Below are positions 13,228 to 17,529 of a DNA stretch of 64,000 nt, in pieces (position 1 is the first letter of the stretch; each line of letters opens with the position of its first letter). The DNA comes from Phormidesmis sp. (GTDB taxonomy: Bacteria; Cyanobacteriota; Cyanobacteriia; Leptolyngbyales; Leptolyngbyaceae), in NCBI GenBank assembly GCA_965248535.1, contig CBDFJR010000005.1, forward strand, positions 608,001-672,000, in the 5' to 3' direction. The notes beneath the pieces were generated by a model that did no database searches, was not told the origin of the DNA, and was given only the letters and a program-made list of their open reading frames with translations. The translations under genes and the position numbers were made by a program.

Positions 13228-13923
13228 TTATTTACGGGGATAGATCACTTGCTCAAGGCGGCGGAAGTCTCTTTCTACTTCACCCCAAAGCGATCGATTG
13301 TGGGGATCAGTTCGCAGGGCTTTTTTGAGATAGAGCCGGGCTTTCTCAAACTGTTTTTCTTGAATCAGTTGCCGCCCCCAGCTTTGATAGATGATGGCTT
13401 GCCACTGCCGGATCTCGGAGTCAGCAGGAAGCCGTTGGGCTAATCCTTCGATTAAGGCGATCGCTCTAGGAAACCGTTTTTCTCTCAACAACTGCTGTAG
13501 CTGCTCATAGGCGGCTTGCTTAAACTGCTGCTCGACAAAGGAGAGGTTGGGATCAGAGTTAACAGGGCTTGATTTTTGCGGATCTTCTCGGCGCGTTACC
13601 GTCACCTTTGGCTTTGCCCCGCTGTTGGCATCTCCCGTCGCAGCAGGTTCTTTGCGCGTCACCGTAATTTTTGGTTTTACAGCTTCTGATGCAGGGGGCT
13701 GGCGGGTCACTTGCGGCCTATCTTGATCCTCTGGAGGTCTCACTACACCCAGCAAAAACCGATAAGCCTCGGTCACTTGAATAAATTTTTCGTTTGCTTG
13801 GCGATCGTTGGGGTTGACATCGGGGTGAAGCTGCCGCGCCAAACGACGATAGGAGGCCTTGACATCCTCATAGGATGCGCCTGCTCTTAATCCCAATAAT
13901 CGATAACAGTCTGCAATGTTCAT
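13228..13923 (-). CDS. DnaJ-domain protein with C-terminal TPR-like region
   Basis: N-terminal J domain with HPD motif (LARQLHPDVNP); TPR-like end (KARLYLKKALRTDPHN). Confidence 0.88.
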   Translation of the reverse strand: MNIADCYRLLGLRAGASYEDVKASYRRLARQLHPDVNPNDRQANEKFIQVTEAYRFLLGVVRPPEDQDRPQVTRQPPASEAVKPKITVTRKEPAATGDANSGAKPKVTVTRREDPQKSSPVNSDPNLSFVEQQFKQAAYEQLQQLLREKRFPRAIALIEGLAQRLPADSEIRQWQAIIYQSWGRQLIQEKQFEKARLYLKKALRTDPHNRSLWGEVERDFRRLEQVIYPRK

Positions 13924-14077: not shown

Positions 14078-14674
14078 CTAGTTGACCGATTCGATCACTT
14101 TGTCGATTAGACCATATTCTTTCGATTCTTGAGCCGACAGGAAGTAGTCACGATCGGTATCTTTCTCAATTTTGCTGAGGGGCTGTCCGCTGCGATCGGC
14201 CAAAATCCCATTGAGCTGACTGCGAATGCGGAGAATCTCTCTGGCTTCGATGGCAATGTCGCTGGCTTGGCTGCGTCCGGTGCCACCCAGAGGCTGGTGA
14301 ATCATGATCCGGGCGTGGGGTAGCGCAAATCGTTTGCCCTTGGTTCCGGCAGCTAAGAGAAATGCACCCATTGATGCTGCAAGACCCACACAGATCGTCA
14401 CCACGTCGGATTTGATGTGCTGCATCGTGTCATAGATCGCCATCCCTGCGGTGACAGAGCCACCCGGCGAATTGATGTAGAGCGAGATCGGTTTACCGGG
14501 GTCTTCAGAGTCGAGATAGAGCATGGAAGCGACGATCGCGTTGGCGATGTTATCGTCTACTTCTTGGCTCAAAAAGATAATCCGCTCCAAGCTAAGGCGT
14601 TGATAGATATCAATCCACTGCTCATAGGAGCTACCCGGCAGACGGTAAGGAACTTTAGGAGTACCGATTGGCAT
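14078..14674 (-). CDS. clpP: ATP-dependent Clp protease proteolytic subunit, ClpP3 type, intact triad
   Basis: MPIG N-terminus; [15 protein letters not shown] (Ser), MIHQP (His), DTDRD (Asp). Confidence 0.95.
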
Positions 14675-14700
14675 AGGACAAGTAAGGGGGGTAGAGGAGT

Positions 14701-15330
14701 TTAAGTCAAACGAGATTGGACGGGCGCAGGCAGTTGTGTGGGATCGAGCACCCGATCGATCAGGCCATATTCCTGCGCCGTAGTTGGGGTGAAATAAAGG
14801 CGACGATCGAGGTTTTTGAGAATTTTCTCAGGCGGTTGACCTGTGTTCTCTGCCAAAATTTCGACAAACATGGCGCGATCGGCGACGACTTTTCGAGCGT
14901 CAATCTCGATATCGGTCGCCTGTCCGCTCGTTCGGTTATATTGCGGAGCGAGGACAATCTCTGCGCTGGGCAAGCTTAAGCGAGACCCTTTTGCCCCCGA
15001 AGAAAGCAACATCGCGGCGGTGCCGCCTGCCTGCCCTAAACAGATCGTGTGGACGGGAGACTTGATGTATTGCATCGTGTCATAGATTGCCATGCTAGCA
15101 ACCATGCCTCCCGTTCGCCGTGCCGACTGCTCACCGGGAGAGTTGATGTATAGGAAGATCGGCTTGGTCGAGTCTTCAGAGTTGAGGGAGAGCAGCAGGG
15201 CGACGATGAAATTGGCGAAGTTGTCGTCGATTTCTTCATCTAAAAAGACAATCCGCTCAAAGCTCATGCGGGTGTAGAGATCGACCCACTGCACTTGTTG
15301 ACTGCCCGGAAGGCGATAGGGAACTTGCAT
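14701..15330 (-). CDS. Extra non-catalytic Clp subunit (ClpP3-like N-terminus, ClpR-like C-terminus)
   Basis: ClpP fold motifs, but all triad positions are replaced ([19 protein letters not shown]). Confidence 0.85.
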
Positions 15331-15368
15331 AAATCCTAGCTGAGAGACAGTGGGCTAACAACGCAACA

Positions 15369-16052
15369 TCAGGTCAGAGCCGGAACAGGGATGGGAAGTT
15401 GTTTGGTGCTTTCTAAAACGATGTCAATCAGCCCATATTCTTTGGCTTCTTGAGGGGTGAGATAGAAGGTGCGATCGGTATCTTTAACAATCTTCTCCGT
15501 CGTCTGCCCCGTGTTTTTTGACAGAATATCCAAAATTGCAGCGCGGTTTTCTAAGACTTCTTTGGCCCGAATTTGAATATCGGTTGCCTGACCGCGTGCG
15601 CCAGAACGCGGCTGATTGAGGACGATCGTGGCGTGAGGTAAGCTAGCCCTCGATCCTTTTGTGCCCGCCGAGAGAATCATAGCGGCAGCGCCAATTGCCT
15701 GACCGATGCAAATCGTATGGACGGGGGGCTTGATGTAGCTCAACGTGTCGCAAACCGCAAAGGCTTCGGTTTCAAACCCGATCGTTTCGCCATCCCAGGA
15801 GGTGCCTGTGGAGTTGATATAAAAGAAGATGGGTTTGTCGGGGTCGTCAAACTGGAGGTAGAGCAACTGAGCAATGATCAGCCGGGTCACGTCTTGACCG
15901 GGGTTGCGGCGATATTCATCGATCGAGTGGAGGGGCCCGCCCAAGTAAACAATGCGCTCTTTTAGCAGCAGTGAGGCTAAGTCAGGGGGTGGCGTGCGAT
16001 AGTAGGCATCGCCATAATTGGTAGACTGAACAGCTTTGATGGGTGATTCCAT
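15369..16052 (-). CDS. clpR: Non-catalytic Clp protease subunit ClpR
   Basis: YYRTPPPDLASLLLKERIVYLG, IIAQLLYLQFDD, FETEAFA, GQAIG (no catalytic Ser). Confidence 0.92.
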   Translation of the reverse strand: MESPIKAVQSTNYGDAYYRTPPPDLASLLLKERIVYLGGPLHSIDEYRRNPGQDVTRLIIAQLLYLQFDDPDKPIFFYINSTGTSWDGETIGFETEAFAVCDTLSYIKPPVHTICIGQAIGAAAMILSAGTKGSRASLPHATIVLNQPRSGARGQATDIQIRAKEVLENRAAILDILSKNTGQTTEKIVKDTDRTFYLTPQEAKEYGLIDIVLESTKQLPIPVPALT

Positions 16053-16278
16053 AGCGTAATGAAGCCTCAACGGTGGCGCTTCATCCATAGTAGCGCGGGA
16101 TTAGCCGCTCATGAAGGAGAAGAACGGCAGGGGATGGGCGGAAAACCGGGCTAAAAAGTTTTTTGATCAGGCTGCGGAAAATGCTGGCTCGAACTGTAGT
16201 TAACCGCCGAATGTCTAAAATCTATGGTTTGCTGTGGAGTGGTTTTGGTTCCCCTGCTTAATCTAGGAGCTTCCCGGT

Positions 16279-17529
16279 ATGCGAGTCGGCTTGGAGTGTG
16301 CGTTAAGTGATGCGGGTGTTGACGTGATGCAACTCAACAGTCAGCGTCAGGTTTCGATTGCGATCGCCGCGATCCCCGATGGCGTGGGACGGAGTGTGCC
16401 GCTAAATTTGTGTTTGATTTTGGATCAAAGTGGCTCAATGGAAGGTCGCGCCCTGAGCACCGTCAAACAGGCTGCCCAAGGGATTTTAGAGCGGCTGTCT
16501 CCGGGGGATCGCCTCTCGATCGTCACCTTTAACCACAAGGCTAAAGTCTTGGTGCCCAATCAAGTTATTGGCGATCTGAGCCAGATGAGAATTCCGCTGC
16601 ACCAGCTAGAAGCATCGGGCGGCACGTCAATTGATGAAGGCTTACGGGTGGGGATCGAAGAATTAGCCAAGGGCAAAAAGGATGCGGTGTCCCAAGTATT
16701 CTTATTAACCGACGGTGAAAATGAGCATGGGGATAACGATCGCTGCTTAAAATTGGCGCAGTTGGCAACGGGCTATAACTTGACGCTCAACACCTTTGGG
16801 TTTGGCGATGCCTGGAATCAAAATATTTTAGAAAAGCTTGCCGATGCCGGGGGCGGAACGCTGTCTTATATTGAGCAACCCGATCAAGCGACGAGTGAGT
16901 TTAGCCGTTTGTTCGATCGCATCCAGTCAGTCAGCTTGACGAATGCTCACCTGATTTTGTCTCTAACTCCGGGGGCCCGTCTCGCAGAATTGAAGCCGAT
17001 CGCCCAAGTTGCGCCCGACACGATCGAGCTTCCGATCGAGCAGGAGGGCGATCGGGTTACGGTGCGTTTAGGGGATTTGATGGTCGATTCTTCTCGTGTG
17101 GTGTTGGCAAATCTGTATGTCGGTCAACTGCCCGCAGGCAAGCAAACGATCGCGTCGGTGCAGGTTCGCTATGACGATCCGGCGTTGGGTCAAGAAGGAC
17201 TGCTGTCTGAGTCGTTTCCGATCGAGGTGTCTGCTCTTAGTGCGTTTCAGCCTGCGCCTAACCCCGATGTGCACAATCAAATTCTGACTCTGGCAAAGTA
17301 TCGACAGACCCAAATTGCTGAGATGAAATTGCAGCAGGGCGATCGCTCTGGGGCAGCAACGATGCTGCAAACGGCGGCAAAAACGGCCCTGCAAATGGGC
17401 GATCAGGGAGCCGCAACCGTGTTGCAAAATAGCGCAACGCAAATTCAGGCAGGGCAAGAATTATCGGAGAGCGATCGTAAGAGAACTCGCATCGTCTCTA
17501 AAACCACGCTGCAATCGAATCAGCCTTAG
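16279..17529 (+). CDS. von Willebrand factor A (VWA) domain protein
   Basis: MIDAS motif LILDQSGSM, GGT, LLTDGENEHG. Confidence 0.88.
   Translation: MRVGLECALSDAGVDVMQLNSQRQVSIAIAAIPDGVGRSVPLNLCLILDQSGSMEGRALSTVKQAAQGILERLSPGDRLSIVTFNHKAKVLVPNQVIGDLSQMRIPLHQLEASGGTSIDEGLRVGIEELAKGKKDAVSQVFLLTDGENEHGDNDRCLKLAQLATGYNLTLNTFGFGDAWNQNILEKLADAGGGTLSYIEQPDQATSEFSRLFDRIQSVSLTNAHLILSLTPGARLAELKPIAQVAPDTIELPIEQEGDRVTVRLGDLMVDSSRVVLANLYVGQLPAGKQTIASVQVRYDDPALGQEGLLSESFPIEVSALSAFQPAPNPDVHNQILTLAKYRQTQIAEMKLQQGDRSGAATMLQTAAKTALQMGDQGAATVLQNSATQIQAGQELSESDRKRTRIVSKTTLQSNQP

Follow-up and report, generated by a model that had tools for sequence, protein, structure and literature searches.

A catalytically dead ClpP3(N)::ClpR(C) chimera between clpR and clpP3 in cyanobacteria, a likely third subunit of the ClpP3/R core

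The clpR-M-clpP3 locus and the protein of its middle gene

The window, the stretch of 64,000 nucleotides of a Phormidesmis sp. contig (CBDFJR010000005.1) that was analysed as a whole, holds an operon of three clp genes, namely clpR, a middle gene designated here as M, and clpP3, separated by spacers of 38 and 26 nt (Table 1). An intact reading frame of 209 codons between the two known genes had been reported in a preliminary description made from the sequence, and this frame was recovered. An ATG upstream of the clpR start, at 16088, would lengthen ClpR to 239 aa. The triad of ClpP3, S101/H126/D176, corresponds in the alignment to S98/H123/D172 of S. aureus ClpP, and the N-terminus of this subunit is the variant typical of three-gene operons (ERIIFLS.EVDD). 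The analysis of the operon returned no sigma-70 site, no terminator excess and no Rfam match. Logan contigs of run X5, which may be the assembly's own source, agree with M without a difference across three overlapping pieces. Contigs from RNA libraries of relatives, described in three studies, span M at about 87-91% identity; as such contigs tell neither the level of transcription nor whether a single transcript exists, they were left out as support.

Table 1. Genes and features of the clpR-M-clpP3 locus, in positions of the window.
Feature	Position	Strand	Description
VWA-domain protein gene	16279-17529	plus	divergent, upstream of clpR
clpR	15369-16052	minus	227 aa, non-catalytic; NCBIfam PRK12552, 392 bits against a cut-off of 263
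ClpR Arg57			site aligned to Asn42 of S. aureus ClpP
M	14701-15330	minus	209 aa, intact; chimera of the ClpP3(N)::ClpR(C) kind, catalytically dead; belongs to the short 'MQVP' subtype
M, ClpP3-like half	15058-15330	minus	residues 1-91: N-loop, helix A, strand 1, helix B, strand 2, 7-residue insert, helix C
M, inferred junction zone	15043-15060	minus	residues 91-96, strand 3, immediately ahead of residue 103, the dead serine site
M, ClpR-like half	14701-15042	minus	helix D, strands 4-5, handle strand, helices E-G, C-terminal tail
clpP3	14078-14674	minus	198 aa, Ser-His-Asp triad intact
DnaJ-domain/TPR protein gene	13228-13923	minus	downstream of clpP3

The triad columns of M hold G, A and R in place of Ser, His and Asp, as the preliminary description had stated, and the loss extends to the family: a complete triad is found in none of the 258 distinct M proteins, Ser being kept in 42 and His in 5. 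M is about 50% identical to each of its neighbours and remains below every NCBIfam cut-off, with 207.8 of 249 bits for PRK00277 and 200.5 of 263 bits for PRK12552. By AlphaFold the protein is predicted to adopt an intact ClpP monomer fold (pLDDT 85.9), and a Foldseek comparison of this predicted structure with S. aureus ClpP gave a TM value of 0.84. Sequence and fold searches of the PDB listed no cyanobacterial ClpP3/R structure among their matches, and a search of the ESM Atlas with M found generic ClpP clusters only.

The motifs quoted in the earlier description are present, and the insert that ClpR carries after ERIVYLG is indeed absent from M, which has seven extra residues after YINSPG. 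The MPIG start of ClpP3 has a role in ClpC docking. Its absence, likewise noted before, holds for this M and marks only its subtype, not the family: the commonest starts overall, MPVD, MAVD, MSVD and MPVN, belong to the long subtype, and the short one, in which the N-terminal extension is lost, has MQVP.

With cyanobacterial ClpR, M shares the ClpP fold without a triad, the C-terminal tail and an insert at the corresponding place, the loop that follows YINS.G, yet it scores below the PRK12552 cut-off and lacks the N-half marks of ClpR, the PPPDL motif and the FETEAFA segment, as well as the insert after strand 1. Its N-half stands outside the 100/100 ClpR clade and carries the ClpP3-type N-loop VPY.LPG..W.D.Y together with ClpP3-type helices A-C. 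M is equally set apart from ClpP3, as it has neither an intact triad nor the MPIG start, and a grouping of its C-half with ClpP3 was rejected (p-AU 0.001). M would work like a ClpR while belonging to neither ClpR nor ClpP3.

Mosaic structure and origin of M

By scoring the columns of M against ClpR and ClpP3 profiles, it was found that the protein changes allegiance once, the cumulative score reaching its minimum within residues 91-96 for 34 of the 38 members scored. The seven elements up to helix C all sum to ClpP3-like values and the seven from helix D to the tail all to ClpR-like values, with a mixed strand 3 between them; both subtypes follow this pattern, which was matched in 0 of 5000 column shuffles. 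Among the ClpR-like columns are those of the FY.TP motif, of the tail, and of helices E and F, which take no part in catalysis. Fourteen ClpP1, ClpP2 and outgroup controls displayed no switch, and their C-part sums reached at most 15, compared with 141 for the M of this locus. Four members of the family carry a weak ClpR signal, with C-part sums of 11, 31, 49 and 51. The motif GQATDI, considered as a ClpR mark, was ruled out since it is common to ClpP3, ClpP1/2 and the outgroups.

These results modify the preliminary description, which had placed the junction at YINSPG and regarded the insertion that follows as ClpR-like. Residues 75-90, past the insert, still follow ClpP3, and the segment after the YINS.G insert is of ClpP3 type (an 18-letter stretch in the long subtype), so that the junction would lie about 25 residues later. 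The seven extra residues are real; their ClpR origin is unsupported, because ClpP3-type sequence adjoins the insert at either end and its length is 6-9 or 13-14 residues across the family, and the insert is probably M's own.

For the phylogenetic analysis 138 rows were kept, after ORFs cut by locus ends, a divergent ClpP (L214) and redundant rows had been left out, and 101, 42 and 40 rows were used in the half-trees. The C-half of M groups with ClpR (99/96) and falls inside it, leaving the ClpR of genome G033 outside (99/93). In the N-half tree calculated without ClpR rows M is nested among ClpP3 (93/87), and with ClpR rows it stands weakly beside the long ClpR branch (67/83). That both halves might group with the same parent had been named as a way to overturn the chimera; the topology of the C-half, imposed on the N-half, was rejected (p-AU 0.004). 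Taking profile scoring, half-trees and element shuffles together, M reads, as had been proposed, as a ClpP3(N)::ClpR(C) mosaic; its switch lies at about residue 91.

A history free of recombination was also weighed, in which M either is an old sister of ClpR whose N-half stayed ClpP3-like or is a copy of ClpP3 that lost its activity and came to resemble ClpR by convergence; such a protein could still be a ring subunit. The half-alignments comprise just 84-101 columns, and AU tests leave standing both a ClpR clade that excludes M in the C-half (p-AU 0.15) and a ClpP3 clade that excludes M in the N-half (p-AU 0.16). However, this history is quite unlikely in view of the single sharp switch, of the ClpR-like columns in regions unconnected with catalysis, and of the TRLSQER motif that M shares with one ClpP3 subgroup. 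Furthermore, the deepest ClpR of the set, that of G033, already possesses the ClpR N-terminus, yet it lies outside M and the remaining ClpR in the C-half.

The mosaic was likely born by unequal crossover between two clpR-clpP3 copies. An exchange in strand 3 between the clpP3 of one copy and the clpR of the other would give the order clpR-M-clpP3, and the loci read have this order, as the preliminary description had expected of such an event. For the short and long subtypes, a comparison of a single with a double origin gave a p-AU of 0.41 in the C-half and 86/46 in the N-half without ClpR rows. Protein P0103, encoded on a contig of 839 bases, combines a type-B ClpP3 N-half that has no insert with an M-type C-half, and is either a second chimera or a misassembly.

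Distribution, selection and co-variation of the partners

A profile built from 43 members, which separates M (at least 321 bits) from ClpP3 (at most 292) and ClpR (at most 250) by a clean gap, detected M in 66 of 251 cyanobacterial genomes with a completeness of at least 90%. These holders, with a single copy each, are spread over 37 of the 127 genera and 10 of the 38 families, and within most of these their occurrence is patchy. They include Cylindrospermopsis raciborskii, Aphanizomenon, Dolichospermum, Trichormus azollae, Leptolyngbya boryana and Microcoleus FACHB-1515, where M is annotated merely as a generic Clp subunit or as hypothetical. Among 120 homologues listed, 63 have 208-213 aa and are 62-96% identical to M, followed by a second tier of about 220 aa; the closest named one among these matches comes from Phormidesmis priestleyi. 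One scan of genome contigs gave at least 10 cyanobacterial loci among 80 matches listed, the rest being generic ClpP. It is well supported that M constitutes a widespread and conserved chimeric family, well beyond one assembly, occurrence in a single assembly having been named in the preliminary description as contrary evidence.

The gene order is nearly invariant, with clpR directly upstream in all 60 M loci read and clpP3 directly downstream in 65 of the 66 genomes. The exception is G027, where clpR-M (C1:1372139-1373395) and a holder-type clpP3 (4090041-4090625) lie 2.7 Mb apart.

M is under purifying selection, as had been suggested from its open frame. Once pairs with saturated or near-zero dS had been left out, dN/dS was 0.046 for M against 0.024 for clpR and 0.018 for clpP3 (28 pairs, 8 congeners), far from the value near 1 that had been named as contrary evidence, and 0.028-0.079 in six further groups. 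The evolution of M outpaces that of its neighbours by a factor of about 1.5 to 4. That M is a decaying duplicate, as the loss of its triad would allow, or an artefact of assembly is extremely improbable: this reading is refuted by the number of genomes that hold M and by its low dN/dS (0.03-0.08), and the coding frames read contain no stops.

Cyanobacteria are credited with three ClpP and one ClpR in PMC7966870, where the note to Table 1 likewise gives one ClpR, and four core subunits are counted in PMC9673162. Holders of M usually have five genes for Clp core subunits. Only four clpP-like genes are present in the source genome (G000, 99.76% complete), which lacks clpP1 near C5 980,700, outside the window; its congener G006 has clpP1 at the corresponding site beside the same upstream neighbour, and clpP2-clpX is intact in G000. 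In G213, G059 and G040 likewise only one of clpP1 and clpP2 was seen. Extra divergent ClpP-like genes beyond the standard four or five occur at L214 (G258) and L194 (G034). In a different three-gene array, at L247/L249 (G107:C108:19311-20503), clpR and clpP3 are joined by a further ClpP3-like gene, diverged but with its Ser, His and Asp motifs kept, which is not M.

The neighbours of M co-vary with its presence, a fact that, like the breadth of the family, had escaped the preliminary description. In the 73 genomes from which both partners were extracted, all 55 holders have K or R, and all 18 non-holders E, at the ClpR site that aligns with S. aureus Asn42, and ClpP3 positions 25, 36, 37 and 50 also shift in holders, 25 and 37 towards acidic residues. 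In M itself the helix-B Asn of this site is retained in 257 of 258 proteins. In S. aureus ClpP, Asn42 contacts Tyr21 of the neighbouring monomer, according to PMC10830462. Beyond the 73 genomes, the non-holder G021 has K and L002 has Q at the ClpR site, and the non-holders G022 and G030 have the ClpP3 Ser36 state of holders. A profile of the holder-type ClpP3 N-terminus, built from 20 holder ClpP3s of which some belong to the scored sample of 251 genomes, gave its 65 best scores (at least 123 bits) to M genomes without exception; the best non-holder reached 121 bits and the holder G241 117. As monophyly of the holder operons found neither support nor rejection (p-AU 0.29, 0.125 and 0.37), the split of 55 and 18 does not amount to 73 independent cases, and the co-variation may reflect one inherited ancestral event.

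A proposed place for M in the ClpP3/R ring

Cyanobacteria have in ClpCP3R their essential protease, which also serves as the model for the Clp core of plastids, and the picture of its architecture comes from two model species. In a ClpP subunit the apical half, formed by the N-loop and helices A-C, is the pore and chaperone side, while the handle strand and helix E of the equatorial half pair the two rings, and each ring face uses residues of both halves. The apical half of M is of ClpP3 type and the equatorial half of ClpR type, and the latter predicts a ClpR position with three active sites left per ring. M is thus probably a third, catalytically dead subunit of the ClpC-associated ClpP3/R core, placed where a ClpR would otherwise stand; in this position the three active sites would be kept and a fourth ClpP3-type N-terminus would be added to each ring.

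In S. elongatus the ring order is given as R-P3-R-P3-R-P3-R, with one R-R contact per ring, in PMC4673316. This single seam, which would lead to 3 ClpP3 : 3 ClpR : 1 M, appears to be the most likely slot, although with somewhat less than even confidence. If a basic helix-B residue of ClpR faces acidic residues of ClpP3, contacts of R with P3 would be preferred to those of R with R, and M would then be needed to close the ring. Since the interface residues of ClpR and ClpP3 differ in holders, M would be obligatory and the three genes would form one co-adapted, exchangeable unit. Both ring faces draw on both halves of a subunit, so the chimera does not provide a clean removal of the mismatch at the seam, and the orientation of M in the ring cannot be read from sequence. 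A complex prediction with ClpP3, ClpR and M gave a score of 0.04, the mark being 0.32.

M could instead occupy a ClpP3 position as an inactive mimic of ClpP3 (for example 2 P3 : 4 R : 1 M), which would lower the number of active sites and keep the ClpP3-type N-termini for ClpC. This arrangement would suit the strongly ClpP3-like helices A and B and N-loop of M, as well as the acidic FLDEE loop of the short subtype, which could face the basic ClpR residue 57. It is nevertheless unlikely, given the ClpR-like handle strand and helix E, and given that the R ring of Chlamydomonas, given in 10.1101/2021.07.26.453741 as P1, R1, P1, R4, R2, P1, R3 at positions D8-D14, keeps three active subunits while the dead ones diversified.

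A role outside the mature core, in which M would assist assembly, act as an inhibitor under certain conditions or belong to a separate ring, also seems unlikely. The full-length fold and the residues of the oligomer faces are conserved, M is a single-copy gene in a fixed position whose partners change along with it, and no holder-type ClpP3 without M was seen among the 251 genomes. Such a role would nonetheless agree with the faster evolution of M, with the insert that varies between 6 and 14 residues, with the N-terminal extension missing from the short subtype and with the distant clpP3 of G027.

The proposed core subunit may be compared with known systems. The ClpCP3R protease of S. elongatus (PMC4673316, PMC7966870) comprises the same two parent genes in the same operon and a dead ClpP-fold subunit beside active ClpP3, whereas the operon described here has a third, mosaic gene in between and partners with other interface residues. 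Closer in layout is ClpR2 of Chlamydomonas, which in the ring order given above has an R subunit on one side and ClpP1 on the other and so stands at the R-R seam, the slot proposed for M. Chain 7eko_L, which by chain order and length would be this ClpR2, is an R-type subunit with a ClpP3-type start; it differs from M in that the part of the alignment shown has no insert behind the PGG loop. Its matches to ClpP3 and to M are of equal strength (E 0.0011 and 0.0007), a resemblance only, so the N-terminal match does not by itself speak for orthology or a special kinship of M with ClpR2. In the Vo ring of the fungal V-ATPase (Vma3/Vma11/Vma16), a ring paralogue was made obligatory by complementary interface changes; the proteins are unrelated, and the new subunit arose there by plain duplication and not, as suggested for M, from a two-parent chimera.

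No description of a third gene in the clpR-clpP3 operon was found in the literature searched, which did not extend to trees and supplements of subscription journals that could hold such sequences. M accordingly appears as an undescribed variant of the known ClpP3/R machine, with a putative role as ring subunit. Should M prove to be a core subunit, roughly one in four of the sampled cyanobacteria would use a three-subunit core instead of the two-subunit core of the reviews, and M would be a bacterial parallel to the diversification of ClpR in plastids. A fuller account, in which a chimera born by recombination resolved the difficulty that an alternating ring of seven has an odd number of places, by filling the R-R seam in a 3:3:1 ring, and became obligatory as the interfaces changed, the three genes move as a unit between cyanobacterial lineages, plastids reached the same layout through ClpR2 and some two-gene operons represent secondary losses of M, is tentative as a whole and rather less likely than not to hold in every part.

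The history of the operon bears on the last of these points. Trees of the operon partners, which covered 73, 44 and 31 genomes (AU p 0.125-0.37), nest the two-gene type-A operons among those of holders in two of four cases, one of them the ClpP3 tree; in another tree these operons lie in a polytomy, and the concatenated tree nests G022/G030 among holders instead. The divergence of ClpR and ClpP3 is out of step with the kinship of the genomes, which suggests whole-operon replacement or hidden paralogy: the congeners G227 and G258 are 97/96% identical in ClpP1/P2 against 71/75% in ClpR/ClpP3, and G115 and G127 94/92% against 80/83%. With two-gene and three-gene versions alive, sometimes in one genus, it becomes possible to test directly why dead paralogues have been added to Clp rings. 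At least three sequence types of clpR-clpP3 operon, two with two genes and one with three, are scattered over families and even within genera (L002-L258), and the family of the source genome itself holds all of them.
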